Source: Patescibacteria group bacterium
GTDB taxonomy: Bacteria; Patescibacteriota; Patescibacteriia; 2-12-FULL-60-25
Length of the DNA stretch: 64,000 nucleotides
Assembly (NCBI GenBank): GCA_049325475.1
Contig: JBMOLN010000007.1
Location: 95,489 to 159,488 of the forward strand
Reading direction: 5' to 3'
In this document: in pieces, positions 187 through 57,676 of the stretch
Position numbering within the stretch: the first letter of the stretch is position 1
Layout: each line of letters starts with the position of its first letter
The notes under the pieces: model-generated
What the model saw: only the letters and a program-made list of their open reading frames with translations
What the model was told of the DNA's origin: nothing
Database searches by the model: none
Made by a program: the position numbers and the translations under genes

Positions 187-305
187 CAACTAGAATCTAG
201 TGCCTAGCGACTAACATCACGTATCGTGCATCCTGTATCGTCTGACGATTCACGTTATACGTTGCGAGTTTCGCGAATTGAGTTCTTGTGTCTAGTATCT
301 AGAGT
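187..305. repeat. phased heptanucleotide stutter array (17 units)
   Basis: CAACTAG AATCTAG TGCCTAG CGACTAA CATCACG TATCGTG CATCCTG TATCGTC TGACGAT TCACGTT ATACGTT GCGAGTT TCGCGAA TTGAGTT CTTGTGT CTAGTAT CTAGAGT, unbroken phase. Confidence 0.85.
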
Positions 306-320
306 CCAACATCCATTCGT

Positions 321-1496
321 ATGACAGCCATGCCTAATCTGGTGCCGCCAATGCCCAACCGGGCACCTCAAATACCTCCGCATATTTTTTTGCAACGAAA
401 AAAGGTAAAAAACCGCCCTGATGAATTGCTAGAACGTGTTGTTGAATCGCATAGCCAACACATACCATATTTTGATTACAAGCGGGCTGTTCACTTGGTC
501 AAATCTGCTTTTGAATCCGCAAATCAAGGCCGGTTGCGCGAATTGGAATCCGAACTCCAAAACCGTATCATCCGTTACTTATCACACCAACCTTCACAGC
601 TGCAAACCGTAGTTCAAAAAATTTTTAGCAATGCGCAAACCGTAATTAAAGACCCGCGCTTTCGAGCCGGCGTGTCTCAAGAAATTAGCCACCTGCAAAG
701 CGGTATTATTTCTGTTATTGCTGTTTTACAAAATATTGAAAATAACTTTAGACGCAGACAAAGACTTGGAATGTTGCCGGCCGAACGAGAACTGTACCTA
801 GGGACAAATGATTATTTGGATGCTGCCAGATGTATTGATTTAATCGGTATTGAATACGATTCAGAAGGACCGCAAGCGATTGATCTGTATCAAGTTAAAA
901 GTCCAAAAATTACTCTAACACGTAAAGAAATTCAAGACATTCAAGACAATCATCAATTATTCGTTGATGAACTTGCTAGCGGCGAATATGCTTTTCGCTC
1001 TAAATTAACTACGCGAAATTTAAGTTTAGCCGAAAAAGAATTAAAAGAGTTTCTTGCCACTGCGGCTGAAAATAAAGAACATGAAAATGTTGCTGAATTC
1101 TTAAAAAGACATTCTGACCTTCTATTGGCATTATTAACCGAACCTCCTGCATCCTTTGAAGATGAGGCTATCGAAGAATACTTAACAACAAATGGAATGG
1201 ATAATCAATCGTTGATTGATCTGCATCTGCTGTTTCAACCCAAAAAATTCCATGTCGCTTGTCAATTATTATCCGAGTTGGGGCTTGGTACGCCCAATCT
1301 AGACGAAACCCAAATCAGAACCATGGAACAATTTCATTTATGGGCTCTGCAATATTTACCACCCGCTGAAAAACTAAAAGCCATTTATACTGATTTTGAA
1401 GTAGAACCACAATATATTACTCAAGATACACAATACCGATCAATCATCGATCATGGCGGCCCGCAAATCATAATGCCCATCCGGCCCGGCCGCTGA
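321..1496 (+). CDS. hypothetical protein (possible PD-(D/E)xK nuclease-like core)
   Basis: 391-aa ORF with no competing frame. The central segment CIDLIGIEYDSEGPQAIDLYQVKS resembles the D..(E/Q)xK core of restriction-endonuclease-fold proteins (by eye only). The rest is unrecognised. Confidence 0.6.
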   Translation: MTAMPNLVPPMPNRAPQIPPHIFLQRKKVKNRPDELLERVVESHSQHIPYFDYKRAVHLVKSAFESANQGRLRELESELQNRIIRYLSHQPSQLQTVVQKIFSNAQTVIKDPRFRAGVSQEISHLQSGIISVIAVLQNIENNFRRRQRLGMLPAERELYLGTNDYLDAARCIDLIGIEYDSEGPQAIDLYQVKSPKITLTRKEIQDIQDNHQLFVDELASGEYAFRSKLTTRNLSLAEKELKEFLATAAENKEHENVAEFLKRHSDLLLALLTEPPASFEDEAIEEYLTTNGMDNQSLIDLHLLFQPKKFHVACQLLSELGLGTPNLDETQIRTMEQFHLWALQYLPPAEKLKAIYTDFEVEPQYITQDTQYRSIIDHGGPQIIMPIRPGR

Positions 1497-1533
1497 TATC
1501 CCGCTCTTGACATAATTACCATTTACCCCTAAT

Positions 1534-1812
1534 ATGCAAAATCCCTTCACCTTAACAAAGGATCAAGACGAAATGGCTGACACAAGCAACAAAGTCGGCC
1601 AATTGGCTGGCAAGTTAGGCTTTGTACCAACATCCGGATCCGTGGCTTTGCCCGGTGATGATGTTTACTCCCATATTTACGAAACTTTGGAAAAAGTAAT
1701 GGCAACGCCCGAGTACAAAGAGCTGGCACGTAAACGCCAAGCCGGCGAAATTACTCAAGAGCAAGCTCTCCAAGCAGTCGTGGAAATCGCCAAACAATTT
1801 GATTCAGAATAA
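1534..1812 (+). CDS. hypothetical small protein
   Basis: 92-aa ORF starting 37 nt after the previous stop, followed by an intrinsic terminator at 1834-1856. Confidence 0.55.
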   Translation: MQNPFTLTKDQDEMADTSNKVGQLAGKLGFVPTSGSVALPGDDVYSHIYETLEKVMATPEYKELARKRQAGEITQEQALQAVVEIAKQFDSE

Positions 1813-1833
1813 TCCTTTCCGTCCCTTCACTCA

Positions 1834-1856
1834 ATCGCCCTCCGGCGATTTTTTTA
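1834..1856 (+). terminator. intrinsic terminator
   Basis: ATCGCC-ctcc-GGCGAT followed by a T run. Confidence 0.7.
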
Positions 1857-2026
1857 ATACTCCTTAACCTCCTACGGTGATTCCTGCTTTTGACAGCAAA
1901 AGTAGGCGAAACTGCTGGGGTCTGCGATGCCCTCTCATTTCATGGGATGCTTATCCTCTTTTACCCACCATGGTTAGCGCATCCCCCAGACCCCATGCCA
2001 TTTCAAAACGAAGTTTTACATTACGT

Positions 2027-4737: not shown

Positions 4738-5016
4738 TTACTTTTTAACTTCTGATACCTGACTTATCGACCTATCGACGTCCGACTTCGATATGTATTT
4801 GTTCACCGCATAAGCCAAATACCCCGTCGCCAAAGCAGTTATCCCAATATCATCCAGCCAACCCAAAATCGGCGCCAAATCCGGAATTAAATCCGCCGGC
4901 CAAATCAGATACAAAATCGCAAAACCTACCGCTGCCTTAGGCTTCCAATCCGTCTTTTTATCTTTAAAAAAATTAATTAAATTTTTCCAATATGGTATAA
5001 ATTTCGTATTTTTCAT
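4738..5016 (-). CDS. DUF1232/YkvA-family membrane protein
   Basis: 92 aa with a LIPDLAPILGWLDDIG motif typical of DUF1232. Sits 2 nt upstream of uppP. The C-terminal residues are encoded by a stutter array. Confidence 0.7.
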   Translation of the reverse strand: MKNTKFIPYWKNLINFFKDKKTDWKPKAAVGFAILYLIWPADLIPDLAPILGWLDDIGITALATGYLAYAVNKYISKSDVDRSISQVSEVKK

Positions 5017-5027: not shown

Positions 5028-5546
5028 TTACACTTTTAACGTTCGACGTTCGACGTTTCCGGTTTTATAATATTCATCAATTTTCTTTATAAGATCTTTA
5101 TACGATAATGTCACTAAATAAAAATCATGCACCGCATTCCAAGCCGAAATATTTTGTAATTTCGGACGCGGTATAATCATCCAATGAAGATGGCTCATTG
5201 ATCCGCCCGAATACGGCCCGATTTGCATGGTAATATTAAAAGATTTGGTTTTAAAAAGTTTAGCTAGAAGTTTTTTAGATGTTAAAAGAACCTTGGTAAA
5301 ATCCTCCCATTCTTCTTTATTTAAATGATCAAGCTCACAAACGTGCCTTTTGGGAATAATCATCAAATTTCCATCCATATAAGGATATTTACATGCCAAA
5401 ACACTCCAAAAATCGCTTCGCAATTGCTTGACCTCTTGGTCTTGCAAGGTATCGGCATCGCAAAAATCGCAAAAATCTTTCTTCTTCTTGCGGCTCCTGT
5501 AAATTGCGCGATTAGGTTCAAAAATCCTCATATATAGATAATGCAA
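5028..5546 (-). CDS. HIT-family nucleotide hydrolase/transferase-like protein
   Basis: GGSMSHLHWMIIP matches the histidine-triad region (HxHxM variant, third His replaced). Start codon is uncertain (M1 or M6). Confidence 0.6.
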   Translation of the reverse strand: MHYLYMRIFEPNRAIYRSRKKKKDFCDFCDADTLQDQEVKQLRSDFWSVLACKYPYMDGNLMIIPKRHVCELDHLNKEEWEDFTKVLLTSKKLLAKLFKTKSFNITMQIGPYSGGSMSHLHWMIIPRPKLQNISAWNAVHDFYLVTLSYKDLIKKIDEYYKTGNVERRTLKV

Positions 5547-6146: not shown

Positions 6147-6275
6147 CCAAGCCTCCTTGAAAGTACCTTAAATACATTAAAAAGACCGGATGATTCTGTC
6201 AAACGGATTAAGTTCAGAATTTAAAGTTCCAAGTTCTATGTTCCAGGTCGCAAGCTCCAAACTGCATGATGCATA

Positions 6276-7085
6276 TCAAAACGCGTATGCCTTTAAATAA
6301 TCAGCCAGATCTTCAAATAAAATAAATACCTCCTGCGGACCCGCCGCATACGGCGCCACTTGATACGGATCAAAAATAAAAATAATTCTATCTTGCGTCA
6401 AATGAAAATTTTTAAAATTCTCAGAAGAGGGACCCGCCCCGTCCATCACCCAATCCTCATCACTTAAATCGCGACTCATCAACTCGTTTATTGTATAGTC
6501 GGAAATGAAGTCCAGATAATACCGCTTTTTTCCGGTCTTGATGTCAACCTTTTCGGCCATAGGATTAAAAACATCCTCAATGGTCATAAGTTTACCGCTC
6601 TCTTCAAGATTATAATTAAATGTATTGAAATATGAATTGGGATGCGCTCCGCCCATATAAACACTTGCTTGCATTATTATACTGACAAAAGCATTATCAT
6701 TGCGGTTTACATAATAACTGATACTTAAAAACCACGGCCCGGGATCGTATTCATGCTCGCTTGCTTTAAACTCATTCAAAAAATTATTTAACTCTGTCTG
6801 AACATGATCATAAACGTCTTGATTAATCTTTTTGCTTATTAAATCGTCGCCTCCGCTGAAATCAGGATATCCGATTTCATAATAATATCCGTCCTGTTCA
6901 TCTTCCAATTTCACCGTCTTGTATTCCAGATCTTTTGTTGATGTCGTATTCAAAATTTTAAGAGGCTCAGCCGGTTTAGGAACCTGCTCTTGCACTTCTT
7001 GCGAATCGGAATTATCTATACTCATCTCCTCGCAGCCCGTAGCTATAAAAATGACTGCAATTAAAATCAAAAAATACTTTTTCAT
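6276..7085 (-). CDS. DUF3298/DUF4163-like lipoprotein
   Basis: Lipobox IFIATGC. GGAHPN and DPYQVAPYAAGP motifs are typical of DUF3298 (RsiV-like) domains. Confidence 0.7.
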   Translation of the reverse strand: MKKYFLILIAVIFIATGCEEMSIDNSDSQEVQEQVPKPAEPLKILNTTSTKDLEYKTVKLEDEQDGYYYEIGYPDFSGGDDLISKKINQDVYDHVQTELNNFLNEFKASEHEYDPGPWFLSISYYVNRNDNAFVSIIMQASVYMGGAHPNSYFNTFNYNLEESGKLMTIEDVFNPMAEKVDIKTGKKRYYLDFISDYTINELMSRDLSDEDWVMDGAGPSSENFKNFHLTQDRIIFIFDPYQVAPYAAGPQEVFILFEDLADYLKAYAF

Positions 7086-7415
7086 AGTCTTACTATCTTA
7101 ATGTATAAACCAAGATTGTAAAAGTTCACCTGCAGTCCCGCTCCCTCGTTAACAGTGACCAGTGACCGGTCGCTGGATGCAACGTACGTTGACCCGTAGT
7201 CCGGTTAACCAGTTATCCGGATTACTGTTAAACGGGATTACTGCAATACGTTTTGGATTCGTAGTTTGTAGTTTGAGGTTAGAAATATTAAAAAACCTCC
7301 CAAAATAGGAAGGCGAGAATTATTTGCAATACCTGCTGAATATCCGCGGACCCGAATCGCTCACTCGTTGATGGCACATGCGTAGGAAATAATCACATTA
7401 ATCAAAATGTTAGCT

Positions 7416-8429: not shown

Positions 8430-8530
8430 TTTTATCTCCCTTCGCAGATTCTGAGTTTATCGAAGAACAAAGGATCAATACATCATGAACTATCATAAAA
8501 ATACTTGAACGTCAATACATAAACTATATT

Positions 8531-9084: not shown

Positions 9085-9240
9085 TGACTAAAGCTATACC
9101 GCAAATTACTTGCATAGTCAATAACTCTCACCGCAGGCGTTGGACTCTGGACGCAAAACTCAAAACTCTAGACTCGAACTTCGTTAACCCGCAGTCCCGC
9201 CCTTAGTGTAGTCGTAGGAAGCGGCACGAGACGTTTCAAT

Positions 9241-9280
9241 ATCGACGTACTGACGTATCGACGTACCGACGTATTGACGA
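9241..9280. repeat. octanucleotide stutter array (5 units)
   Basis: ATCGACGT ACTGACGT ATCGACGT ACCGACGT ATTGACGA. Confidence 0.85.
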
Positions 9281-9334
9281 ATCATCCTCTTTTTGATATA
9301 CAAACCCCGGTACACTTCACAAAAGGAAAAGCCG

Positions 9335-10099: not shown

Positions 10100-10292
10100 C
10101 TTCTATTTTCAACTTCTCTTCATGAGAGTTTTTTTAATCCTGATTTTCATCTCGTTGACCCGTGATCCTGTTAACCCGTTAACCAGAGGTATTCTCGTGA
10201 TAACGGTTTAATCCCGCCACGAACGGGACCCCGCCTTCAAAAAAATATTTAAATTATTGTGGCGGGGCGGATATACTTGAGCACGATAAAAG

Positions 10293-10321
10293 TTGTTAGT
10301 TGTCAGTTGTCAGTTTATAAT
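10293..10321 (+). promoter_or_regulatory. sigma70-like promoter TTGTTA-17-TATAAT, ATG 6 nt downstream (leaderless-type)
   Basis: Hexamers at 10293-10298 and 10316-10321. ATG of the kinase-like gene is at 10328. Embedded in a GTCAGTT heptad stutter. Confidence 0.45.
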
Positions 10322-10327
10322 ATTGCC

Positions 10328-11895: not shown

Positions 11896-12034
11896 TCCAC
11901 CTCCCATAAAAGACTATCCAAATTCTCTTGTCCGGTCAACTAAAAACCCCCTCAAGATTTCAAGGGGGCAAAATCCGCCTTCACGTAATGAAGACGTATA
12001 GACTTCCGACTTATAGACGTCCGACGTTTAGAAG

Positions 12035-12153
12035 TCCGTAGTCCGCAGTCCGCAGTCCGTAATCCGAATTCAGAGTTCAGAGTTTAGAGTTCAGAATTCC
12101 TAGTTCGTGGTTCGTAATTCGTGGTTCGTAGTTCGAATTTCAAATCCTCAATT
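12035..12153. repeat. phased heptanucleotide stutter array (17 units, TCNNNNT)
   Basis: TCCGTAG TCCGCAG TCCGCAG TCCGTAA TCCGAAT TCAGAGT TCAGAGT TTAGAGT TCAGAAT TCCTAGT TCGTGGT TCGTAAT TCGTGGT TCGTAGT TCGAATT TCAAATC CTCAATT. The last units encode the C-terminus and stop of the ABC exporter. Confidence 0.9.
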
Positions 12154-14041
12154 CCTGCTTGTCCGCAAGTGCGCGGAATGTTGGAGAAAGTTCATAAAGT
12201 TCGGCAAAGGAATACGCTACGGCTTCAATTTGCGGTTCGCCGTTTTGTAATTTATTGGCGGGCTTGAGTACAATAAACTTGTCGCAAATGCGCCGCACCG
12301 TGCTAAGACGATGCGCAATCACAAGCGCACCCTGATCTCCGGCAAGCGCCAGCTCCAAGCCCTGCTGCACTTCCCACTCCGTGAGTGAGTCCAAGTTGCT
12401 CGTTGCTTCATCAATTACCAGAAAATCTGGATTCTTGATCATGGCCGCGCCAATCATAACGCGCTGTTTCTCACCGCCCGAAAGCTGCAAGCCGTCTTTG
12501 CCAACCTTGGTTTCGAGCCCATGAGTGAGCCTGTCTTCAAAGTCAATCTTATACCGCCGCATCAACTCCCATATCTCATCATCGGTAATCCGCGCACGCT
12601 CTTCTTCCGAAAGGCTATAGAGCAGATTGTAGCGCAAAGTATTGTTAAAAATCTGCGGATGCTGGGCAATATAACCAACATGCTTAAGCCAGGAAGCCAG
12701 CTTTACATCACGCAAATCATAACCGTTCACACTAATCGATCCGTATTGCGGATCCATATGCCGTAGAAGCAAGCGCATCAGCGTGGTCTTGCCCGAACCG
12801 GAAACGCCCAGCAGTGCGACCTTTTCTCCGGGTTCGATGGTAAATCCTACATTGCGCAAAACCGGCCGTGGATCTTTTTTTACATCATCGGTCTCTTCAT
12901 CGTCATCTTCATCAGGTTCCTGACCCGGATATGTATGCGAGATTTGAGAGAACTCCACGCAAAATTCCTTTGCGCCGTTCAAATCTTTTGCATCCGATTT
13001 TTCCACTACATCGGGCTCGATCTTCAGAGCTTCGCTCAACGATTTTACGGACGGCATGTTGAAATTGAAATGTCTTTCAATTTCACTCACGCGCCACATA
13101 TTATCCGCCAACTTTTGCACCCAGGCAAACAGCGGAAACAACAAACCCATGTTCCAGTTGCCTTGCCAGACATTCCACACGCCATAACCCATAATCACGA
13201 TCGTGAATATATTCGTAATCAACGAACGGCTTGAAATCTGACCTATGTACCACAGCCAAAACCATCTGTCCCGCACCAGCAATGCTGATGAATCTTTCCT
13301 ATGCACCTTGATTTCGGGTTTTTGCTTGGCATTTACGGCCACTCGCTCATACTTGTCGATGCGTTCCGTGAAAAACTTGTTTATACGCCGGAATTCTTTA
13401 TCAATCGGCAAGCATGCTTCAATGGTCCGCCTGTTCAAAAACAGCGACCAAAGAAAATGCATTGCCAGCATTCCGGTAGCCAACAATCCGGCAACACCGC
13501 TTAGCATGAACAATAAAAACCACGCCAGTGCAAGATTAAGAAACACGGCATAGCCATCGAACAACAGGGTGGTTTCCATTTCACTGGCCTTCCAGCGGCC
13601 TTTGTCGATATTGGAAACACCCAATTCCGAAGCATGCTGAATATGCTGCCCGGCAGACTTTTGGAACATGCGCTTTAGAATGCTCTGATCCCAATTCACC
13701 ATGTGCTCACCTAACAAGTATTCGCGCGATCTGAAGTGTAGCCACATAAACAGTATGTTGACTGTGTAACAAAAAGCGAAAGCCGCAAACCCCTGCAATG
13801 CAAGAATTGCATTCCGATTCTGTATGCCGTCAAAGATATAACTAACCGCATACGGCGCCATGGTACTAAACAATATGGTAAATATTTCCAGCACCATAAA
13901 GCGCCTGAAATATTTTTTGGTCACGGGAGTCTGCTTTTCATCCCACACCCACTTAACCAATCGTGCGGTTTCCCGCATATCAAGCAAGTACTGCCAGATT
14001 GTTACCGGTGGTCTGCGTTTAACGTCCGCATCTTCGCTCAT
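12140..14041 (-). CDS. ABC exporter, fused permease/ATPase (MsbA-type)
   Basis: Six-TM N-terminal half, Walker A GVSGSGKTT, signature LSGGEKQRV, Walker B FLVIDEATSNLD. Acidic insert EPDEDDDEETDD lies just before the NBD. Confidence 0.9.
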   Translation of the reverse strand: MSEDADVKRRPPVTIWQYLLDMRETARLVKWVWDEKQTPVTKKYFRRFMVLEIFTILFSTMAPYAVSYIFDGIQNRNAILALQGFAAFAFCYTVNILFMWLHFRSREYLLGEHMVNWDQSILKRMFQKSAGQHIQHASELGVSNIDKGRWKASEMETTLLFDGYAVFLNLALAWFLLFMLSGVAGLLATGMLAMHFLWSLFLNRRTIEACLPIDKEFRRINKFFTERIDKYERVAVNAKQKPEIKVHRKDSSALLVRDRWFWLWYIGQISSRSLITNIFTIVIMGYGVWNVWQGNWNMGLLFPLFAWVQKLADNMWRVSEIERHFNFNMPSVKSLSEALKIEPDVVEKSDAKDLNGAKEFCVEFSQISHTYPGQEPDEDDDEETDDVKKDPRPVLRNVGFTIEPGEKVALLGVSGSGKTTLMRLLLRHMDPQYGSISVNGYDLRDVKLASWLKHVGYIAQHPQIFNNTLRYNLLYSLSEEERARITDDEIWELMRRYKIDFEDRLTHGLETKVGKDGLQLSGGEKQRVMIGAAMIKNPDFLVIDEATSNLDSLTEWEVQQGLELALAGDQGALVIAHRLSTVRRICDKFIVLKPANKLQNGEPQIEAVAYSFAELYELSPTFRALADKQELRI

Positions 14042-15117: not shown

Positions 15118-15216
15118 GGGAACAAGTATAAACCACAAACAAAAAACCACAAAGAGCCGTCCAATACCGCCAAGTAACTCTTTATGGTTTGTGCTTTATA
15201 ATTTTTTTGCTTTTTG

Positions 15217-18200
15217 CTATCGGCAAACATCTGAACCGGCTATATTGTTATTAAAGTAAGCGAACAAATTTACTCCGTTAATAAACTCTTCAATATTACT
15301 GCCGGTTACAGCTAATTCCAAATCATAATCACCTTCTTCCCAAAAAACATAAACCGCGCTTGGATTTTCATATTCCCTTGCAACCAGTCGCTTGCCATCT
15401 CTGTCTTGATCTCTGGAACTTACAGGTTCCTTCGCCCAAGAAGCTGTTCTGTCAGCAACAAACTCATCCAAACTCATGCCATAATCAGCCGCATGAACAG
15501 CAACTGTGATATTGTCACCATAATAAACCGCATTTTCAAAATCATCAACAGGAGTCATCCTTTTCCAGTTTTTTGGATATCCAATCTGATAGCCCAATTC
15601 GCAATTCACATAAATCTGCATATCTGCCGACTCATCCCAAATAATCAACGGCGCATTTGTGGCGGGTTTAAATGTCTTAACAATTTCCTGCATATCCCTT
15701 ACAGCCTGTTCCGAAACATCGCTTGGCTGGATGCCGTTAAAGTAACTCCAAGCATAAACAAATTTCGCATCACGGCCAATCTCCTCATCCCAGCACAAAT
15801 CCAGTTCCTCACAATCTTTTCGCTCCCATTCCCAAGAATCATGTGTGTAAACATTTATTATCATCATTTTAAACCAACCCGACTTATCGGAATACTCAGA
15901 ATCTTCTTTTGTCGGCAGATAAAACTGTGCAACCGCAACAACATTCTCGCCATCAACCCCCGAAGTCTCCGCCGTATAACCCTTCCAGCTTGGAGTCAAT
16001 GTTAACTCATAACCATATTCACTATCTTTATAACTCAACGAAACCTCCCCGCTCTCCGATACAACTTCCTCTGTTTTTTTATTATTCGATGTTCGAGATT
16101 CGTTAACCAGATCATCATTATTAAACGTTTGACGTTCGACGTTTGAGGCCACGGCTCTGTAATCATTTCCAACTTCTTTTTGCTCGCCGGTGTATCTTCC
16201 TGCGACAATCAATAAAAACAGCAATCCCGCTATCAATGTTAAAATCAATACGGCAATACCCAAAGTTTTTTTATCCTTTTTACGAAGTTTGATAAAAAAC
16301 ACAATGCCTCCAATAAACAAACTAAGCGCCAAAACAAGCATCAATATAGACCAGCCATCAAAAACCGGCTCAAACATAAGCGGAGGAAACTCCTTTAAAA
16401 AAACTTCTCCTCCCAAACCGGGCACATTCTCTTCCGGATACAATCCTGACGCAACATCTGTTAAATAATCAACCGAACTATTTGCCGCTCCCTTCTCGCG
16501 GAGCTTAGGCTCTATTATTTTATCATCGATTGTCAGAGCGGCTTGTAATTTTTCAGAATCCAATTCAAGCACAAGATCCGAACCTTGTTTTACATCAATA
16601 TTTTTATATTCATAAATTTCAAACTCTCCGCTATCCGTGGGGTAGGATGTCATTACACTCGCCTTCCCGCTGTCAATTCCCGCCGCCTTAACTTCATACT
16701 TGCCATCCTTCGGCATCATAAAATATGAAATAACCTCATTATCCGCAAAAGCTCTGACTTCCGGATAAACAGCTGAATCCTCAACAACGAAATTGCCTTC
16801 CGCGTCATAACCAACTCTTGCACCCGTATCTTTATTTATAATCATTACATTAAATGGACACTGTACCACAACCCTGACTTTATCGCGCGCATCAAATGCC
16901 ATCATGCGCTCTACCATGTATTTCATCTGCGCGTCACGAACATCCTTATAGGCTCTTTCCGCAATACTGGCGTTGATTTTGTCCTTTATATTCTGATCCA
17001 AATTATTAAAATATTGTTGTTCCGCGCTGGTCAGTTTGAGTTCCGGCCTTTGGACTCTTTGGTACACGCCTCCGCATAACGGATAAAACGGCGGATCACA
17101 CTGAAAACCGTGCGCCTGCCCATCCACCATATCCTCCCAATCGGAAATTCCGTAAATACCATGACTGTTCATCAACCATAAATCAAAAATCTTGGCCGCA
17201 TCGCTCCAAAGCGTTCCCTTTTCATAAACCGCTACCGCAAGATGCCCGGCCAGCGTATTCAGCACAGGCGGGGCCAAAACTTCAATCGGTCCGTAATCAT
17301 AATATTTTTCGATGATGGATCTTTCCGTAGCGTCTTTACTCAACCGCAAACGATCCAGCATATTGATTACGCGTGTCTGCTGTGATCCGCAAACCCAAGG
17401 CTCGTATTGTTCTTTTAACCTTCTCGCATAATCCAGACTTGCCTGATTAGATGAAAAAGTCTCAATAGCCATAGCTTTTAACACGCGATTATTAGTGGGA
17501 CAGCTCGCGCACCAAACACCTTGCCGAGCGTATGGATTTAACGGAATCTCATTATATTTTTTAACAATATATTCGTAAGCTTCCTGCTTGGACAAATCTC
17601 GCGCGCAATCCTCCGGACAATTTGCATGCGTCTCCCCCGGTTGGCACATCCAATTCCCGCACCAAATGCTGAATCCCGGAGTAAGCGTGATTCGCGCTTG
17701 CGGATTTCCATTTGCATTTACAGCCTGTAAAACCAAAGTCGATGTTACAAAGTCCCTCGGCTGTTCTGTCGTTGTATAAGTTAACTTTACCTGGCCTTTT
17801 GCATCAGTCTCGGCAGACAATTGCTTAACCGCCCCTTCTTTATCATCATCAATTTTACTTCTCTCATCTTGCAAGCGATAAGAAACTTCCTGGCCCGCAA
17901 GCGGATTTCCGGCCTGCATAACAGTTACAACAAAATCCATTGATGTTTTCCCGTCTGCAACCATTTCAACATCTCTGGGAGAAATCGAAACATCGATATC
18001 CGATCCGCACCGTGCCTCGCAAGATCCCCCGCAATCAACCCCATCTTCATCGCCATTTTGCACTCCATCAAAACAATTCGGTTCAGGTGCGGCAACATCG
18101 CTAACTTCGATCGCTTCGCAGCACTCCCTGATAACCCGGCTTGGACTTAGCAATGCATTCTCCTCAGCACGAGAGACATCCCCGCATTCATTCTTACAAT

Positions 18201-22073: not shown

Positions 22074-22113
22074 TGTCCAATAACCAATGACAAATAGCCG
22101 GAGTTTATTATTT

Positions 22114-37835: not shown

Positions 37836-37910
37836 GGTGGCCATGGTGAAGCGGTATCACAGCAGATTGTGGCTCTGCTATCACGGGTTCAACTCCCGTT
37901 GGCCACCCCA
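37836..37910 (+). tRNA. tRNA-His (GTG), with encoded G-1 and CCA
   Basis: Hand-folded cloverleaf. Acceptor GTGGCCA/TGGCCAC, D stem GTGA/TCAC, anticodon stem GCAGA/TCTGC with loop TTGTGGC, T arm ACGGG-TTCAACT-CCCGT. The extra 5' G pairs with discriminator C. 3' CCA is encoded. Confidence 0.9.
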
Positions 37911-37911: not shown

Positions 37912-38091
37912 GAAAACGCCAGTCCAATTTTCGGGCTGGCGTTTTCATATGTGTAGTTAACAGAGGGAGTTGAACCAGGGGATGGTAAGGGGAGAGGCTC
38001 CCCTTACATATTGAGGGTGACAGCCCTGAGTTTACGAAGGGCGATAAGAGGGGCGGAAGCCCCTATTAAGAGGAGTGTAACGACGACGTGA
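37912..38091. mobile_element. 180-bp insert bracketed by 21-bp direct repeats of the tRNA-His 3' end (possible integration scar or miniature element)
   Basis: AACTCCCGTTGGCCACCCCAT occurs at 37891-37911 (within the tRNA) and again at 38092-38112. The insert carries GGGAG/CTCCC hairpins and no ORF. Confidence 0.35.
37913..37945 (+). terminator. terminator-like hairpin after tRNA-His
   Basis: AAAACGCCAG-13 nt-CTGGCGTTTT. Confidence 0.55.
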
Positions 38092-38117
38092 AACTCCCGT
38101 TGGCCACCCCATAAGAA

Positions 38118-39394: not shown

Positions 39395-39429
39395 ATTTCT
39401 TATTTCTTATTTCTTAATTCTTATTTCTT
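39395..39429. repeat. heptanucleotide array (ATTTCTT x3, AATTCTT, ATTTCTT)
   Basis: Fills the gap between the DUF134 stop and the ccdA-fusion start. Confidence 0.85.
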
Positions 39430-39432
39430 ATT

Positions 39433-39711
39433 TTAATCTTTTATAATCTTAATCGCTTTCCCCTCAACCAATCCTTGCGCGATTTTTTTATACGCTGACG
39501 ATAAAATCCGTTGAAAAGTACTTTGCGAAGTCTGCATCTTTTTTGCGGCTTCATTCTGATCCAGCTCTTCAATATTTTTTAAACGCATAGCTTCCATCTC
39601 TTCATGAGACAATTCCACAAACTCAAGATCCCTCATGGGGATGCCTTGTGGTTTAAAAAACGTCACATGAGGATCAAATTGTATTCTCCTGCCCAGTCTT
39701 GGTCTTGGCAT
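39433..39711 (-). CDS. DUF134 (UPF0251) DNA-binding protein
   Basis: MPRPRLGRRIQFDPHVTFFKPQGIP start and a sigma-70-region-4-like HTH (AAKKMQTSQSTFQRIL). Confidence 0.8.
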   Translation of the reverse strand: MPRPRLGRRIQFDPHVTFFKPQGIPMRDLEFVELSHEEMEAMRLKNIEELDQNEAAKKMQTSQSTFQRILSSAYKKIAQGLVEGKAIKIIKD

Positions 39712-39990: not shown

Positions 39991-40221
39991 AAATTTATTA
40001 AATTAGCAGTTAGAAATTATTAATTAGCAATAAATTAGTTATTTAGAGTCATTTCTAATTGCCAATTGCTATTTGCTAATTAACTATATTGAATATATAC
40101 CCATAACTATATTTTGTCAAATAATCCAAAAACCCCGAGATCTCCCCGGGGTTAATAATAATTCGCAAAGCGACTCCAGCATTTTTAATTCTTAATTTAA
40201 AAAAGCCCTTATGGGCTTTTT

Positions 40222-41595: not shown

Positions 41596-41688
41596 AATTC
41601 ATGGACTATAACAGAATTCGGCTTTTTGTCAACCAAAAAGACCGGAATCATCCGGCCTTCACTTTATAACGTTATGACGTTATGACTT

Positions 41689-43354: not shown

Positions 43355-43819
43355 TTAAGCCGCTACAGCAACCCGCACCGGTTCTGTAGTTGCCGGCGCC
43401 TCATTTTTTTCTGATTTTTTCTTGGGATTTTCAATTGTATAAATGAGAGCCGACAGCATTTTGTAAATCACGGTATTTGTTTCCTTCAGCCGGTTAACCG
43501 TTTCTTTATGTTCCGGAAACAAATCACTTATAAGCATCAACGAAGTTTCGCAAACCGCGGTATTGTTGCGCGCATAATTCAAATGCTTTACAAACTCATC
43601 TTTAACTCTCTTCTGCTGTCCCTGCGCAATTTGCGCCGACATGGAGAGAGCCGCGCGGTTTAATTGCGCTGCAAGTGCATACCTCTCCTCTTGCGGCAAA
43701 GCATGAACCAACTCATGCACGCCCTTGGCAAATTCAAATGCCTGTTGCCAAACCACCAAATCTCGAAACGATGTTTGCTTATATTCTTTTTTTTGTGAAG
43801 TATTGTTTGAAGTAGTCAT
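43355..43819 (-). CDS. four-helix-bundle protein (23S rRNA IVS / Avd-like family)
   Basis: FRDLVVWQQAFEFAKGVHELV...AAQLNRAALSMSAQIAQG. Start is probably MTTSNN rather than the upstream M. Confidence 0.75.
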   Translation of the reverse strand: MTTSNNTSQKKEYKQTSFRDLVVWQQAFEFAKGVHELVHALPQEERYALAAQLNRAALSMSAQIAQGQQKRVKDEFVKHLNYARNNTAVCETSLMLISDLFPEHKETVNRLKETNTVIYKMLSALIYTIENPKKKSEKNEAPATTEPVRVAVAA

Positions 43820-43909
43820 ATACGTAGTAATAAATGTATTGCGCGTTTGAAAGCTGACCATGACGTTAGCACGTCTTCCCGTTCATCTGTACTCCGGAAA
43901 ACTTTAAGG

Positions 43910-44263
43910 TTAAGGCGGTCGTAAATGAAAAATTAACTTCGATAACATTCTAATAATATAATTGCTTCTTTCATAAATAACTTTATGGGTTGCTTCATTA
44001 ATGTATTTAAAGCGCAGAGCCAAACACAACAAAGACCGAACTTCACTGCAAGATCCTTTTGCAATAAATAAAAACCTGACGAATTCTTTATTCGAATCTC
44101 TTTCAAAGCCTTCCGTGATATTGCTGGATACAGATACGCTGGCTCGACGAATTTGATCATTAAAGGACCAATCTCGACACAATCTAAATGCCTCAAAAAC
44201 ATCAACAGCTAATTCCATTGATTGTTGCCAAGCTTTAATATCTTCAACTTGTTTAAAATTCAT
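43910..44263 (-). CDS. four-helix-bundle protein (23S rRNA IVS / Avd-like family)
   Basis: FNDQIRRASVSVSSNITEGFER and KGSCSEV motifs. Confidence 0.8.
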   Translation of the reverse strand: MNFKQVEDIKAWQQSMELAVDVFEAFRLCRDWSFNDQIRRASVSVSSNITEGFERDSNKEFVRFLFIAKGSCSEVRSLLCLALRFKYINEATHKVIYERSNYIIRMLSKLIFHLRPP

Positions 44264-44359
44264 ATTTGTTGACTGTATTAACTCTGGTTAACGGGTATAC
44301 GGGACTACTGATCAACTTGACTCGAGTCCTGAATCCATCATTCAAGTTTAAGCCTCTAG

Positions 44360-45877: not shown

Positions 45878-45887
45878 AATCAAGCTG

Positions 45888-46265
45888 TTAGCTTTTAGCC
45901 GATAGCTTATAGCCATCGTTATAAATGCTATTTAAAAAACCATTCAACATCTTTAATAACTCAACCACTTCACTTAAAATATCACCCATCTCATTCTTTT
46001 TTATATATTCCAAATCTACTGCCAAATAAATCATAGACTGAACCTCAACACATGATGCTTTCGCTATACGTAAAAAATAAACAAGTTCACGATCATTTCT
46101 TCTTGCGTAACCCTCGGCTATGTTATTCATAACAGAAAGTGACGCTCGTCTTATTTGATCTCTAAAACCAAAATCTCTACTATCTGAAAATAACTTATAG
46201 ATACGTACTGTTAATTTTCTCGCTTTTTGCCACACTAACAAGTCTTTAAACGAAATGATCTTCAT
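45888..46265 (-). CDS. four-helix-bundle protein (23S rRNA IVS / Avd-like family)
   Basis: FRDQIRRASLSVMNNIAEGYAR and KASCVEV motifs. The last ~10 residues are encoded by a TAGC-word stutter. Confidence 0.85.
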   Translation of the reverse strand: MKIISFKDLLVWQKARKLTVRIYKLFSDSRDFGFRDQIRRASLSVMNNIAEGYARRNDRELVYFLRIAKASCVEVQSMIYLAVDLEYIKKNEMGDILSEVVELLKMLNGFLNSIYNDGYKLSAKS

Positions 46266-46522
46266 ATATCTTATTCTGATATAAACCGATCGCCATCAGC
46301 TAACAGCTATCCGCTATCGGCTAAGTAAAAAAGAAGCCCTTCCGGCTCCTTCGTCTTTGCACCTATTACTATTGTAACGAGAGATAAATGTTTTGCAAGT
46401 TAATTAACAATTCCCAAAACTTTCTATACTTTTCTTAACAAACAGCAACATTTTTTGTCATCTTATTTCAACAATCCACAAACAAACTTCCGACGTATCG
46501 ACGTCCGACGTATCGACTTCCT

Positions 46523-47020: not shown

Positions 47021-47061
47021 ACTACTATAAACTTACAACTGACAACTTACAAGAGTAAATC

Positions 47062-47085: not shown

Positions 47086-47136
47086 CTTTTAATCCTCTAT
47101 AAGCTATCAGCCACCCGCTAAAAGCCATCAGCTAAG

Positions 47137-49145: not shown

Positions 49146-49194
49146 TAACACCCCATTCTTAGCTCTAATCTTAAGGCTTAAAAATTTAACATAA

Positions 49195-49286
49195 GCTCCT
49201 TTCCCTTGCCCTGTGCCTCGGAGCTTTATGCGAAGTGGTATGCGGGGGAAAGGTCTCCGACGCATGTCGGAGGGATAGAGGGAGCA
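49195..49286. repeat. CTCCC/GGGAG-rich hairpin element upstream of cassette 1 promoter
   Basis: TTTCCCTTGCCC...GCGGGGGAAAGGTCTCCGAC-gcat-GTCGGAGGGATAGAGGGAG. Similar layout at 50375-50453 and 31686-31748. Confidence 0.5.
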
Positions 49287-49314
49287 TTGACAAAACCCTC
49301 TTTTTATGTAATAT
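49287..49314 (+). promoter_or_regulatory. sigma70-like promoter TTGACA-16-TAATAT
   Basis: Hexamers at 49287-49292 and 49309-49314, upstream of small-protein cassette 1. Confidence 0.5.
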
Positions 49315-49439
49315 TTACCCATTGTTCCTACACAAAACCACCAAACAAGCCCTTGCAAAATTCTCTATCGCAACCTGCCCATCCTTGAGAAAGGAGGGGT
49401 TTGGGGTGGATTTGAGTCTTGCTAAAAGGGGAAATAACC

Positions 49440-50861: not shown

Positions 50862-51036
50862 GATCCTGATTTACAGCACGTTTCTCCGTAGTCCTGTTAA
50901 CCCGTATTCCGGAGTCAACTCTGGACAACGATTTACGGTTGCACTGGAATACGTTGTATATTCGTAGTTCATGACGTAGGACGTAGGACGATTGGGACGA
51001 ACCCTCGCACCGTACGGTGCAGGGCGTGCGACAATA

Positions 51037-51065
51037 TTGACCTTCCCCTTATTTTTTGATATAAA
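51037..51065 (+). promoter_or_regulatory. sigma70-like promoter TTGACC-17-TATAAA with TGn extension
   Basis: Hexamers at 51037-51042 and 51060-51065, TG at 51057-51058. Upstream of cassette 3. Confidence 0.45.
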
Positions 51066-51223
51066 TAGCCCGGAACCTTCAATCCAACAGGCGGAAACAA
51101 TCGCCTGCTTCCCATCTCTACTTCACATACCGTCCCAAATCGACGTATCCACGTCCGACTCATCGACGATATTAATGTGAGATAAAGATGAGAACCTCCA
51201 ATCAAATTGAAAGGAGAAAAACC

Positions 51224-51477
51224 ATGGGGTAAAAATCATACAACACCGCAAACTGCGCTCCCGCAAACCCGGCGTTCGTCTTGCTTATCGTGAAATCTGC
51301 ATTGACGGATGCCTGCATCGCATGGATTTGGTAATGTATCAAATTGTTCTAGGCGAATTCCGCTGTACGGAAGTATATCGCTTTCCCGATGAAAAACCTT
51401 GTAGTTGTAAAAAATCATCATCCTCCCCCATTAAACAGATCATAGACAAGATAGCATCTGTCTTCTCTGCCCCTTAG
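51224..51477 (+). pseudogene. frameshifted (G-tract) small Cys-rich ORF in third cassette
   Basis: AAGGAG-N7-ATGGGGTAA gives a 2-codon ORF. The adjacent frame is open for 82 codons (VKIIQHRKLRSRKPG...CIDGC...CSCKK...) up to TAG at 51475. One extra G in the GGGG run would fuse them. Confidence 0.3.
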
Positions 51478-51612
51478 CGGGCATTTTTTTAACCAAGATT
51501 TCCGGAATTTAACTTACGATTAGCAGGATTATTAATTAAACCGATAAGCAAATGAGCCACTAAGCGATTAAGCTTATTGGCTTTGCGGCTTTGTCGCTTA
51601 GTAGCTTCGTAA

Positions 51613-51647
51613 TAGAATCTAGAGTCTAGAATCTAGAGTCTCGAGTC
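51613..51647. repeat. heptanucleotide array (TAGAATC TAGAGTC TAGAATC TAGAGTC TCGAGTC)
   Basis: Ends 7 nt before the rsmE stop codon. Confidence 0.85.
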
Positions 51648-51653
51648 TGCCAT

Positions 51654-52349: not shown

Positions 52350-52459
52350 AAACTTATCGTACAACGTACATCGTACATTGTACAAAGTCCATAGCAATCA
52401 CTGACTGCCGTCTAACGACAATCGTCAATCAAATAATAATCCTGCTGATCATTTTAAAA

Positions 52460-53090
52460 TCAAGACACGTCGTTCGCGAACGACCGTGTCAAGGTAATCC
52501 TGGTAAAAAAAAGAAGAGCCGTGTTGCGCCCTAAGAATTGATAATTTTTGTGGCGTCACAGCTCTAGGCCAAGACGCGGATCAACTCTCGTGGGCAATTA
52601 ATCGGCAAAGCCGACATTGAGAAGGAGCGAATCGCTCCACGATTTTGATACTAGCGGTATCCCTGGCCAATAAGACCACTGGTTCATCCCATTCCTGGCA
52701 AGAACTTCGAGACTTGCAATGAAGTCTCATAAATGAAGTGTGCCTGGTGTGCGTGTCAGGTCGCTATGCATGAAATGTCCTGCACAATGAGCTGACACGC
52801 CGTGTTTTTAGTTTTGTTTTTTGATTTCAATGTGTCGCGTTAAACGCGGCGGGAATGAGATAATCCAATTCATGGATGTCCATAAGAACAGGTTATGGAG
52901 ACCCATTATTTAAAGTGGTTTGAAATGTACTATGAGGTAATCAATAGAGTTGCCTGCAAACCGACCATGAGCATGGCTTGCATGTGCCATATACGACACG
53001 AAACGCGCTTGCAAATCAAGCGCTTCCACACAAAGAGCGTTATAAAATCTAAAGTACGATTGTGTATAATTATTATATCGTACTTTTTGA
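52460..53090. ncRNA. candidate structured non-coding RNA(s), class unknown
   Basis: About 630 nt with no credible ORF and at least 11 stable hairpins (for example 52464-52490, 52751-52800, 52709-52728). Promoter-like and terminator-like signals exist for both strands. Confidence 0.3.
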
Positions 53091-53100
53091 CTTTTATCAA
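53072..53100 (-). promoter_or_regulatory. sigma70-like promoter TTGATA-17-TATAAT (minus strand) at edge of ORF-free region
   Basis: Minus-strand hexamers at 53100-53095 and 53077-53072. Overlaps a plus-strand terminator-like hairpin, so the interpretation is ambiguous. Confidence 0.35.
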
Positions 53101-53176
53101 TGGTGAATAACTTATTATTGTTATTTATGCCAAAAAAACCGGTTTAAAATCATTATCCACATCTTGTGGAAAAGTA

Positions 53177-56601: not shown

Positions 56602-56830
56602 AAACTAACGCATTACGTCGTACGTCTATACGTCAGAAGTCTAAAATTCAGACTTCCGACTTATCGACTTATTGACGTTTGTGTTGCTTGCCCTGAAACT
56701 AAATCCCGCGCCGTGGCACGTGATGTAATTTTACGTGCTCTTTGGATCCCTGTCTCAGGACAAACTAATAAACTTAATTAACTAATTTAATCCACCGTCC
56801 AGCGTCACTCGTCCCACGTCATTGTGTTAA

Positions 56831-56865
56831 TTCGGTGTTCAGTGTTCGGCGTTCGGTGTTCGGTT
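56831..56865. repeat. heptanucleotide array (TTCGGTG TTCAGTG TTCGGCG TTCGGTG TTCGGTT)
   Basis: Within the 507-nt spacer upstream of pnp. Confidence 0.85.
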
Positions 56866-57000
56866 GTATCGGCGCGCCTTTATAATGGCACGATTAAGCC
56901 AAATAGTCAAAACCGACCTCGTATCCCTGTGCATCCGTTAAACCGTTATACCGAGAATAGCTCTGATTAACGGGTCAACGGGAATACTGGCCAACTTGTC

Positions 57001-57112
57001 TCGAATCTAGCTTCTAGAGTCTGACATTGTGTATCCTGTATCGTGTAACGTCTGACGTTTCGCGCTATACGATTCGCGATGCGCGAACAGAGTTCTAGCG
57101 TCTAGCGTCTAT
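57001..57112. repeat. phased heptanucleotide stutter array (16 units) with the same word order as 187-305
   Basis: TCGAATC TAGCTTC TAGAGTC TGACATT GTGTATC CTGTATC GTGTAAC GTCTGAC GTTTCGC GCTATAC GATTCGC GATGCGC GAACAGA GTTCTAG CGTCTAG CGTCTAT. The last unit contains a stop codon. Confidence 0.85.
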
Positions 57113-57606
57113 TTAGCCAATAAGTAACTCTTTATCGCCTTTACAACTTTCGAATCTTCTTTCAAATCTTCAACAAAAAGAATATGCTCGCGATTAATAT
57201 ACATCCTATCCTCCGGACCATGTAATTCATTCCCTAACTTGATTATCTTTAAATCACCTTGGCCTTCAATAATTCCATTGGCCGAAGCCCTGTCTGTTTG
57301 CAAATAATAAATATTTTTCAACACCAGTTCTTCTTCGGTTTTTTCCGTTATCATTCCAAAATAAACTTGCCCGTTAGACAAAAACACAGCCTGATACTCG
57401 CCTTCATAAACAGCTTCATCCGCAACATCTGTTTTATCTTCTTGAGCTTCGCTGGCCGGCGTAATGGCTTTAAAAAACCCGAACGCCCCGATTAACAAAA
57501 TCGCCGCCGCCCCGGCTCCAAAAAAGAACAGCTTAAGATCTACCGCAGGTTTATGATCTTGATTTTCAATTTTCGGCTCTTGAGCCTCTATTTTTTTACT
57601 TGGCAT
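57109..57606 (-). CDS. membrane-anchored hypothetical protein
   Basis: 165 aa with a single TM (LFFFGAGAAAILLIGAFGFF). Immediately downstream of the giant gene. Confidence 0.6.
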   Translation of the reverse strand: MPSKKIEAQEPKIENQDHKPAVDLKLFFFGAGAAAILLIGAFGFFKAITPASEAQEDKTDVADEAVYEGEYQAVFLSNGQVYFGMITEKTEEELVLKNIYYLQTDRASANGIIEGQGDLKIIKLGNELHGPEDRMYINREHILFVEDLKEDSKVVKAIKSYLLAK

Positions 57607-57620
57607 ATAAATTTAACTAT

Positions 57621-57676
57621 CAGCTATCAGCTATCAGCTATCAGCTATCAGCTAACAGCTAACAGCTAACAGCTAA
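57621..57676. repeat. two-state heptanucleotide array: CAGCTAT x4 then CAGCTAA x4
   Basis: Exact units read directly, between the giant-gene stop and the next gene's start. Confidence 0.95.

Follow-up and report, generated by a model that had tools for sequence, protein, structure and literature searches.

Degenerate heptamer arrays in the spacers of a Patescibacteria genome: probable slippage repeats spreading with palindromic, IVS-like elements

Tandem arrays of heptamers were characterised in a 64,000-nt stretch of a metagenome-assembled Patescibacteria group bacterium genome (assembly GCA_049325475.1, contig JBMOLN010000007.1, positions 95,489 to 159,488), hereafter the window. The arrays consist of words that drift from unit to unit, longer strings are shared between unlinked spacers, and inverted arrays bracket genes of the S23p/IVP family. 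The reading that we favour, with a probability of about 0.6, is that the arrays are heptamers of the type known from short tandemly repeated repetitive sequences (STRRs) and long simple sequence repeats (SSRs), that they change by slippage of units, and that they spread as palindromic selfish elements resembling the intervening sequences (IVSs) of 23S rRNA. No dedicated function would be needed, and selection would remove arrays solely where they are harmful.

Periodicity was measured in a crude intergenic set of 9,145 nt (55 spacers), with dinucleotide shuffles as controls. Intergenic lag-7 identity was 0.324 as compared with 0.265 ± 0.0046 in the shuffles (z 12.7), with harmonics at lags 14, 21 and 28; coding DNA had a lag-7 identity of 0.263 and showed a period-3 pattern only. 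A local scan returned 39 segments at lag 7, at most 12 at each of the other lags between 4 and 13 and at 15 and 16, and 26 at the harmonic lag 14. In the output of the TRF program 34 of 84 rows had period 7 and 11 had period 8. The phased period 7 that a sequence-only reading of this DNA had noticed in the spacers is thus borne out, and so are all eleven arrays that it cited (lag-7 identity 0.55-0.98, P 4e-6 to 3e-27; the array at 9241-9280 has period 8, with an identity of 0.75). Its statement that almost every spacer and most gaps between genes are so built was too strong: against per-spacer shuffles, lag 7 was significant (p<0.01) in 16 of the 48 spacers of at least 30 nt and lag 8 in five, and the share of intergenic bases lying in arrays is 10-14%. 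The density of the tetranucleotide CTAG is 2.84 per kb for spacers, as compared with 0.33 per kb for genes.

The morphing of words along the arrays, also claimed earlier, was confirmed. Mean Hamming distance was 1.8-3.1 between neighbouring units and 3.8-5.8 between units eight positions apart, and none of 2000 permutations of unit order reached the observed decay. Substitutions between neighbours were evenly distributed over the seven columns (chi-square p 0.16-0.80). Lag-7 identity was 93-98% in the arrays at 57621, 39395 and 23125, and 55-75% in the long arrays. The longest one, with about 16 units at 12033-12145 (lag-7 score 48.5, identity 0.75, P 3e-27), displays the decay with unit distance. 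It begins over the stop codon of an ABC-transporter gene (12140-14041, - strand) and lies within the 3' untranslated region (UTR), before a terminator at 11969-11946; the contig L169 from Logan contains it in identical form.

Such arrays would be expected if whole units were gained or lost by replication slippage or unequal exchange, with the 7-nt phase kept, and ordinary substitutions then made the units drift; neighbours would be alike and distant units unrelated because of this succession of whole-unit change and substitution. Whole-unit gain or loss was seen as one copy-number difference, at a single site: the same loop of CobD contains (CGGAGCR) x8.5 in one related genome (L084) and x2.5 in another (L082). 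Among the origins and roles that had been suggested for the arrays, slippage is favoured by this copy-number difference, the distance decay, the column-even substitutions and the fast turnover at orthologous spacers described below.

The possibility of an assembly or sequencing artefact, raised by the sequence-only reading, is negligible. Two Logan contigs, which come from independent assemblies, match the window at 100% identity along 4.6 and 4.9 kb and cover seven arrays, one array lies in frame within a conserved gene, and arrays of the same kind are present in four related genomes from other studies. No support for an artefact was found; one Logan contig does break off within an array, at 57066, which is an effect that repeats can have.

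The sequence-only reading knew of no described class of elements with this architecture, but 7-bp STRRs, heptanucleotide long SSRs and S23p-carrying rRNA IVSs are all on record. Classical STRRs consist of a few fixed words in almost perfect repeats and are found in heterocystous cyanobacteria. The window arrays resemble them in being 7-bp tandem units at many intergenic sites; they differ in having dozens of drifting words (neighbours differing as given above) with 8-nt and 7+8-nt variants, and in their host, which is not a cyanobacterium. Cyanobacterial STRRs, often hairpins between genes of an operon, are of unknown function, although a role in transcript stability or translational coupling was suggested (PMC2670836). 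According to two papers, heptanucleotides are the most abundant class of long SSRs, and polymerase slippage was proposed as their origin (PMC4679880, PMC4692102, citing Mrazek 2007); the same papers describe them as intergenic and as varying in length and sequence among close relatives at one spacer (PMC4692102, PMC4679880). Examples are GGGAATC in Xanthomonas and GGGGAYT in Nostoc (PMC4692102). Like long SSRs, the window arrays are dominated by the 7-nt class (the 39 segments at lag 7 against the counts at other lags), and the CobD loop provides a copy-number difference between related genomes. In contrast, the long SSRs are homogeneous, with one word dominant in each genome, and G-rich or G-quadruplex-forming in the cited cases, whereas the words of the window are diverse, have no G-quadruplex potential and build dispersed composite elements. 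The TAACTGA repeats of marine Beggiatoaceae, cyanobacteria and Bacteroidetes comprise 2-6 heptamers a few nucleotides before start codons that lack a ribosome-binding site, and some of them overlap the ends of open reading frames (ORFs) (PMC4679880). The window words AACTGAC and AACTTAC are one base away from this repeat; there, however, one dominant word runs forward toward the start codon, whereas AACTGAC of the window is antisense and only one of many vocabularies.

Of the known systems STRRs come nearest, followed by the heptanucleotide long SSRs, which occur in several phyla, and for the IVP-linked arrays the S23p-carrying IVSs. The window arrays work like STRR, long-SSR and IVS systems but are not classed as members of them, as they lack defining features of each. 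Related in manner are also the REP/BIME/REPIN sequences and the Rickettsia palindromic elements (RPEs), short palindromic repeats spread through spacers and 3' UTRs, with RPEs also found in frame within genes; to our knowledge neither REP nor RPE has an internal 7-nt periodicity. The window has a single in-frame case comparable to those of RPEs, in cobD, a likeness in behaviour without sequence relationship. The window sequences are not similar to REP or RPE, and in contrast to REP/RAYT systems the window ORFs scanned include no RAYT-type (Y1_Tnp) transposase; one Y1_Tnp was found at the edge of the related locus L088. The layout is not that of a CRISPR array either, the units being 7-8 nt long and placed head to tail without spacers. 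No description of heptamer arrays in genomes of the candidate phyla radiation (CPR), nor of IVP cassettes outside rRNA with tandem-array arms, was found in the literature searched. The undescribed part seems to be that a Patescibacteria genome carries the repeats in a degenerate form with many words, tied to IVP cassettes outside rRNA.

If slippage had acted purely locally, arrays would have grown in place from chance seeds, and shared words would reflect composition or chance. The general excess of heptamers in CPR and other genomes agrees with this, and column-uniform drift fits neutral decay. Moreover, the exact 7-mers that had been listed as a shared vocabulary recur individually at the frequency expected from composition (6-10 expected each). 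Strings shared between spacers nevertheless exceed those in shuffles (10-mers 160 vs 71, 12-mers 40 vs 5.4), and the real sharing lies in these longer strings and in dispersed families. The string TGGACTCTGGAC does occur exactly twice, as had been said, at positions 9141 and 27826, each 3 nt off those first given. Unlinked spacers are connected by GACGT words, CAGCTAA words, TTGTCAG words, a period-8 CGTTAACC family and a composite element (repeat families D1, D3, D4, D5, D8, D10 and I1). The CGTTAACC family includes a pair of 58-nt segments in two distant spacers, 83% complementary to each other: an element at 10153-10211 (pair I1; TRF period 8) and its inverted copy at 56938-56995 (fold z -2.2).

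The composite element, about 115 nt long and palindromic, is laid out as CTAG words, GTATC words, GTCTGACG, TTCGCG words and again CTAG words. There are two full copies, at 187-312 (nhmmer E 4e-38; self-reverse E 3e-4; lag-7 0.55) and at 56996-57115 (nhmmer E 6e-36; + strand fold z -1.9; families D4, D8 and D10), the latter adjoining the stop codon of gene 57109-57606. The array cited earlier at 187-305 has a lag-7 identity of 0.55, but as a tandem repeat it is weak (spacer-level p 0.045) and is better described as a copy of this dispersed element. A partial copy lies within cobD/cbiB (28730-28828, - strand; nhmmer E 8e-6). This insert of 99 nt adds 33 in-frame codons, which encode IAKRETRNVEPSAERQTMQDTRYKIHDTRYTDT in a loop of CobD; the Pfam CobD_Cbib match spans it (2.6e-89), and it has no counterpart in 11 of 13 homologues. 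The three copies of the composite element, the 58-nt inverted pair, a 53-nt segment that is 89% identical between two gene ends, the shared 12-mers and the reappearance of IVP arm vocabularies at ORF-less sites all speak against purely local slippage. That explanation is contradicted by the long shared strings, already disfavoured and, in our estimate, very unlikely. The preferred reading accommodates the same data by supposing that array-bearing segments may spread between loci as small palindromic selfish elements like IVSs, some with an S23p/IVP ORF between inverted arrays and most without an ORF, in the form of hairpins, the 115-nt composite and orphan arms.

Four ORFs of the window belong to the S23p/IVP family (PF05635/TIGR02436, E 8.5e-23 to 3.5e-34), all on the - strand: 22114-22473 (Pfam 3.8e-34; 72% identical to a copy at the orthologous place in L084), the adjoining genes 43355-43861 and 43910-44263 (together 43355-44263; Pfam 8.5e-23 and 9.3e-32) and 45888-46265, a four-helix-bundle gene (Pfam 3.5e-34; NCBIfam TIGR02436 2.6e-33). 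Three of the four (22114, 43910 and 45888), as well as IVP genes in the related genomes L082 and L084, are bracketed by inverted arrays with duplex dG values of -30 to -50; the fourth, 43355-43861, showed weak pairing (dG -14.5). The bracket of gene 45888-46265 consists of a 5' arm of CAGCTAA vocabulary at 46292-46324 (inverted pair I12, 89% complementary; family D3), which has ORF-less relatives at 47089-47135 and 57609-57677, and a 3' arm at 45883-45913 (pairs I3, I6, I7 and I12) that overlaps the 3' end of the ORF. Gene 22114-22473 has its 5' arm at 22497-22531 (duplex dG -32.5; pairs I25 and I17) and its 3' arm, identified by inverted-pair and duplex analysis, at 22074-22104. The 5' arm carries AATAGCA words on the sense strand with CAAGAGT at the end and overlaps the msrA stop codon. 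Its words also flank the IVP genes of L082 and L084, which lie between (AATAGCA)n-CAAGAGT and ACTCTTG-(TTGCTAT)n (duplex dG -46 and -50). Upstream of gene 43910-44263 there is a period-8 arm of CGTTAACC vocabulary (44279-44316; pair I2; duplex dG -30.4) with ORF-less relatives at 7187, 10153, 50879 and 56938, and a second period-8 arm (43864-43898; family D5) is located between the two adjoining genes. Each arm vocabulary had 1-5 ORF-less relatives elsewhere in the window versus 0.05-0.25 for shuffled arms. The msrA gene is likewise bracketed by complementary arrays.

A metagenome scan with a single IVP protein as query yielded 80 loci (L089-L168), 70 of them with both flanks. An inverted-repeat bracket was found at 65 of these 70, whereas the control gave 4 such loci out of 70. 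Tandem arrays averaging 33 nt form the arms; most have a period of 9 (AAGTTYATM), others of 8 or 7, and the IVP arms of other lineages have in common an AAAGT core repeated every 7-9 nt. Away from the IVP genes these genomes contained 32 lag-7 segments per 100 kb versus 5-8 at lags 5, 10 and 11. Co-evolution of IVP protein and arm period was weak at best (identity 0.635 vs 0.590).

The bracket mirrors the stem-plus-ORF layout of 23S rRNA IVSs. RNase III excises the IVS of Coxiella, which combines a 28-bp inverted-repeat stem with GACAGAT heptamers ahead of S23p, 2-3 in number depending on the strain (PMC4990558). S23p IVSs of Coxiella, Leptospira and others are regarded as selfish, ORF-less short forms exist (PMC4990558, PMC11270868), and IVP ORFs occur in CPR rRNA insertions (PMC11270868). 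The window cassettes share with them a PF05635 ORF enclosed by terminal inverted repeats that form a long stem; they differ in sitting between protein-coding genes, outside any rRNA helix, and in that their entire arms are tandem arrays. With brackets around IVP genes and arm words recurring without the ORF, the old idea of IVSs as mobile elements becomes testable by genome comparison.

In L082, the spacer between a large surface-protein gene and ydjM (17523-17875) contains a truncated, array-bracketed IVP gene, and the orthologous spacer of the window (15151-15216) measures 66 nt and retains an (AGCAAAA)2 remnant. Orthologous sites can thus differ in whether they hold an IVP cassette. One could go further and take the S23p/IVP (Avd-like) ORFs as autonomous members of an unrecognised mobile palindromic class, of which the ORF-less arrays and hairpins would be non-autonomous derivatives. 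We regard this as unlikely; if it were true, the period-7 stutter would be the footprint of a new type of mobile element without any known transposase, and the heptamer STRRs of other IVP-rich phyla might share that origin.

The four related genomes, taken from other studies, were represented by loci that are syntenic with the window and encode CobD proteins of 62-64% identity. Lag-7 segments numbered 61 per 100 kb in the window, 39 in these cobD-clade relatives, 11 in other CPR loci and 6 in non-CPR loci. The suggested comparison of orthologous spacers gave a divided answer: the trait and part of the vocabulary are common to the relatives (AATAGCA/TTGCTAT, AACTACA/TTTGTAG, CGGAGCA and AACGTCG), but orthologous arrays differ in words and copy number. 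Arrays in orthologous spacers of the window and L086 differed in words and length, and one spacer measured 330 nt in the window versus 15 nt in L086. In the window this spacer holds three arrays, at 7153-7283, namely CAGTGAC words, a period-8 palindrome (7187-7241) and TTCGTAG/TTTGTAG words (lag scan, inverted pairs). Downstream of the stop codon of a PdaC-domain gene (6276-7085) the window has an AAGTTCC-type array (6224-6260; TRF, lag scan), in place of which L086 carries an ACTGCAA array. The terminator hairpin GCCATGCTAAACTAAGCATGGT was conserved in sequence between the two genomes while arrays turned over. As for more distant loci, degenerate heptamer arrays, typically of about four units, were seen at other CPR PNPase loci (L021, L055, L038, L045 and L013), with words such as ATTGATA, TTGACAA, AAGTAGT, AATTTCC and ATTGACG; such arrays are nearly absent from L002 and L003, the two closest PNPase relatives (51-54% G+C).

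Arrays tend to touch gene ends, as had been noted: in 10 of 24 the distance from an edge to a gene boundary was 10 nt or less, compared with 5.0 ± 1.5 in random placement (P 0.004); seven contacts involved the stop side and four the start side. Arrays over or just past stop codons and before a classical terminator are those at 12033-12145, 41664-41686, 46471-46521 and 47089-47135; the arrays at 7153-7283 lie between terminator and promoter; those at 10291, 23062 and 47023 overlap promoter-like sites near start codons without a Shine-Dalgarno sequence; 57617-57677 and 39992-40090 are at predicted transcript 5' ends; and coding sequence contains them in the cobD loop and in the C-terminal tails of DUF1232 and HIT-family proteins. 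If selection acts only on harmful arrays, this would explain why they crowd stop codons, fill leaders and 3' UTRs and persist in frame in loops and tails.

A selected role in RNA has to be weighed against this. The arrays could be cis-regulatory elements whose stems are cut by RNase III or protect mRNA ends and so punctuate or stabilise transcripts, a role proposed for STRR hairpins. The array (CAGCTAT)4-5(CAGCTAA)4 at 57617-57677 (- strand, lag-7 identity 0.98) forms a perfect 28-bp RNA hairpin (dG -42.9, z -9.6), which is perfect only with G.U pairs on the transcribed strand. It is directly downstream of a promoter-like site (57708-57681, TTGAAA-16-TATACT), and the start codon at 57606 follows 10 nt further on. 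Another hairpin, 39992-40090 (- strand), pairs AATTAGC with ATTGCTA arrays around a 19-nt loop (pair I1: 40-nt arms, 75% complementary; fold z -1.95) and lies directly downstream of a strong promoter-like site (40120-40092, TTGACA-17-TATATT), so that both hairpins would be mRNA 5' ends. A third one, with arms of 7/8-nt GACGT/GACTT words, is in the leader of the PNPase gene (56615-56680, - strand; dG -28.9, z -5.6). On the sense strand A-rich arrays follow stop codons and T-rich arrays, often the reverse complement of the same words, precede start codons; IVP genes and msrA are enclosed by complementary arrays; and RNase III cuts the equivalent stem of the Coxiella IVS (PMC4990558). However, only about one quarter of the arrays had an inverted partner above controls, and apart from 57617-57677 and 56615-56680 most fold no better than shuffles (z +1.7 to -1.3). 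Among 52 distinct IVP stems there was no sense-strand G.U bias in the mismatches (61 vs 69), most of which were transversions, and arrays turned over in orthologous spacers whereas a genuine terminator hairpin stayed conserved. We consider a selected RNA role rather unlikely. The lack of G.U strand bias speaks against RNA-level selection on the IVP stems, and hairpin formation as a universal property is rejected on the pairing and folding data.

Termination, one of the roles suggested earlier, is unlikely as a general role. Hairpin-plus-T terminators were enriched (41, 31 and 30 vs 22, 23 and 19 in shuffles) and often adjoin arrays, and termination was rejected as the main role on the strength of these classical terminators. 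Nothing in the data pointed to CTAG/primase sites or to Rho utilisation.

Alternatively, the arrays might bind a protein at the DNA level (a nucleoid protein, a regulator or the IVP pentamer) or serve as promoter modules made of TTGxxxx boxes resembling -35 sequences or of UP-like tracts. TATAAT-like boxes do follow TTGTxAG arrays at the correct distance at 10293, 23062 and 47023, with an orientation that follows the gene. The array at 10291-10322 (+ strand; TTGTTAG TTGTCAG TTGTCAG TT TATAAT; pair I4, 90%; promoter scan 10/12 matches) is an inverted copy of 47023-47052. The array at 47023-47056 (- strand; ACTC-(TTGTAAG TTGTCAG TTGTAAG)-TATAGT; families D9, I4 and I8) overlaps a promoter-like site (TTGTAA-17-TATAGT in the promoter scan) 9 nt from the lspA start codon. 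That at 23062-23095 (- strand; ACTC-(TTGTTAG TTGATGG TTGTCAG)-TAAAGT; pair I8, family D9) is upstream of msrA and complementary to 22497-22517 (pair I17). In two orthologous spacers arrays stand directly upstream of TTGACA or TTGACG, the vocabulary is partly conserved across genomes, and the AAAGT core of IVP arms in other lineages would also fit. Against a binding role, the arrays have no common core (the most widespread 5-mer was present in 6 of 39), every heptad column is open to change, sites at 7-bp spacing do not share one face of the helix, and arrays are also present in 3' UTRs and coding sequence. Promoter-like sites were not enriched overall (43, 39 and 37 vs 35, 36 and 35 in shuffles). 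A single binding motif is rejected on the missing core and the lack of a protected column, the sequence-specific binding array proposed earlier is not supported, and the DNA-level explanation as a whole appears quite unlikely. Under the slippage-and-spread reading, RNase III cleavage of long stems, stabilisation of 5' ends and the supply of -35-like boxes by TTGxxxx arrays may be side effects.

At 41605-41632, 47024-47052, 23062-23095, 10293-10321 and 11908-11935, genes without a Shine-Dalgarno sequence have a TATAAT-like box that precedes the start codon by 7-10 nt; other genes of the window have a clear GGAGG. The closeness of the box and the lack of a Shine-Dalgarno sequence suggest that the genes concerned may have leaderless mRNAs.

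Several observations weigh against the interpretation that we prefer. The arrays are oriented to transcription, with an AT skew of +0.34 after stop codons versus -0.16 before start codons (p 0.012). The window and its relatives have 49 10-mers in common, compared with 19.7 ± 7.3 expected; neutral arrays of fast turnover would not predict that vocabulary is kept at about 63% CobD identity, so that a function is possible. The composite element was not found by nhmmer in the loci of relatives or in other loci. An insertion with clear ends or a duplicated target site was not observed, and the window contains no transposase; mobility is therefore suggested by multiple copies only. The Logan, JGI and NCBI copies are identical and thus uninformative on copy-number variation within the population, and look-ups by exact protein gave no hits. 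The choice of a 7-nt unit is left unexplained, and the period is not a universal constant of the polymerase, as IVP arms elsewhere use 9 or 8 nt.

The excess of period 7 is not in itself new biology; the useful lead lies in the density of the arrays, their degenerate many-word form, the in-frame copy and the link to IVP. The heptanucleotide-repeat phenomenon represented by STRRs, long SSRs and TAACTGA repeats is extended to the CPR, here in a compact genome in which the arrays reach into coding sequence besides occupying intergenic DNA to the extent given above. The heptamer repeats and the S23p/IVS elements, two separate puzzles, are now connected. On the practical side, the arrays lead gene calls astray by extending ORFs, by encoding protein tails and by the in-frame insert, and short-read assemblies of CPR genomes can break at them.

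The remaining arrays are given here by type. GACGT words with a 15-nt (7+8) period form the array 11987-12037 (TRF period 15; families D1 and D14) and recur at 4747-4798, 9238-9283, 46471-46521 and 56615-56680. At 4747-4798 (- strand; families D1 and D14) GTCGA/ACGTC words encode the C-terminal tail of a DUF1232 protein, and the L086 orthologue has an array of this type as well. The array at 46471-46521 (TCCGACGTATCGACG, 7+8; TRF, family D1) starts 1 nt past the lspA stop codon, and the divergent spacer 9151-9283 combines a CAAAACT array (9151-9175) with a period-8 TATCGACG array (9240-9283; TRF, lag scan). The HIT-family gene has (ACGTTCG)x2.7 over its 3' end (5039-5057, - strand; TRF). A CAGCTAA-family array (47089-47135; family D3) comes directly after the stop codon of a dksA-like gene and before the terminator 47089-47062. 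The period-8 array (TTATGACG)x2.9 at 41664-41686 (TRF; lag-8 p 0.002) begins 3 nt past the stop codon of an M23 peptidase gene, (TAGAATC/TAGAGTC)x5 at 51613-51648 (TRF; lag-7 identity 0.86) is 5 nt from that of an rsmE-like gene, and (ATTCTTA)x4.4 at 23123-23153 (TRF, lag-7) lies 8 nt past that of an FtsX/MacB-like gene. At 39387-39433, (ATTTCTT)x6.7 (TRF score 80; lag-7 identity 0.93) occupies the entire 38-nt spacer from a stop codon (39433) to the next start codon (39394). GCTAGAT, CCAAATA and AATTGCT arrays, related to the arms of IVP gene 22114, are situated upstream of the + strand gene 29998-31593 (29923-30023; lag-7 scan), and TCCACCG-type and TTCGGTG-type arrays at 56791-56864 (TRF, lag-7 scan). 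Downstream of the cobD stop codon there are AGACGCT-type and (TGCTCCG)x3.6 arrays (27813-27881; TRF, lag-7 scan), whose CGGAGCA word also makes up the inserts in the cobD genes of L084 and L082. The 53-nt segment mentioned above contains a hairpin and is located at 27873-27925, at the 3' end of cobD with the stop codon included, and at 57951-58003, in the 3' part of a giant ORF; the cobD copy has CGGAGCA heptamers on its flanks.

The giant ORF (57771-63998, - strand, >2031 aa) has internal repeats at 60990/58644, 62617/63220 and 62047/62212/62374 and no match in Pfam or NCBIfam. The window has a G+C content of about 45% and a GC skew that is negative throughout; most genes are on the - strand. 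Its housekeeping set includes PNPase, trigger factor, ABC and MacB-type transporters, cobD/cbiZ, msrA, lspA and BacA, and the PNPase is 64-67% identical to PNPases from metagenome-assembled genomes of Patescibacteria and Candidatus Uhrbacteria. An RNA-family scan detected no rRNA genes in the window, and tRNA-His (37837-37910) was the sole known RNA family matched. The final 20 nt of this tRNA gene (ACTCCCGTTGGCCACCCCAT) are repeated exactly at 38093-38112; this att-like direct repeat encloses about 180 nt and may be what is left of an integrated element. Two exact copies of the 15-mer CTGAGTTTATCGAAG lie at 8451-8465 and 31719-31733, with a variant near 38040. The copy at 31719 and the variant lie within GC-rich GGGAG...CTCCC palindromic stretches (31594-31783 and 37960-38100), and a further stretch similar to these was found at 49146-49418. 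This family is a separate dispersed element with no relation to the heptamer arrays. The spacers 50968-51653 (686 nt) and 52398-53176 (779 nt) are unusually long for a CPR genome; no ORF was called in them, and Rfam gave no match at E<=0.1. Copies of the string GATTAGCAGGATTATTATT lie at 50275 and 51518 and, inverted, at 52426.

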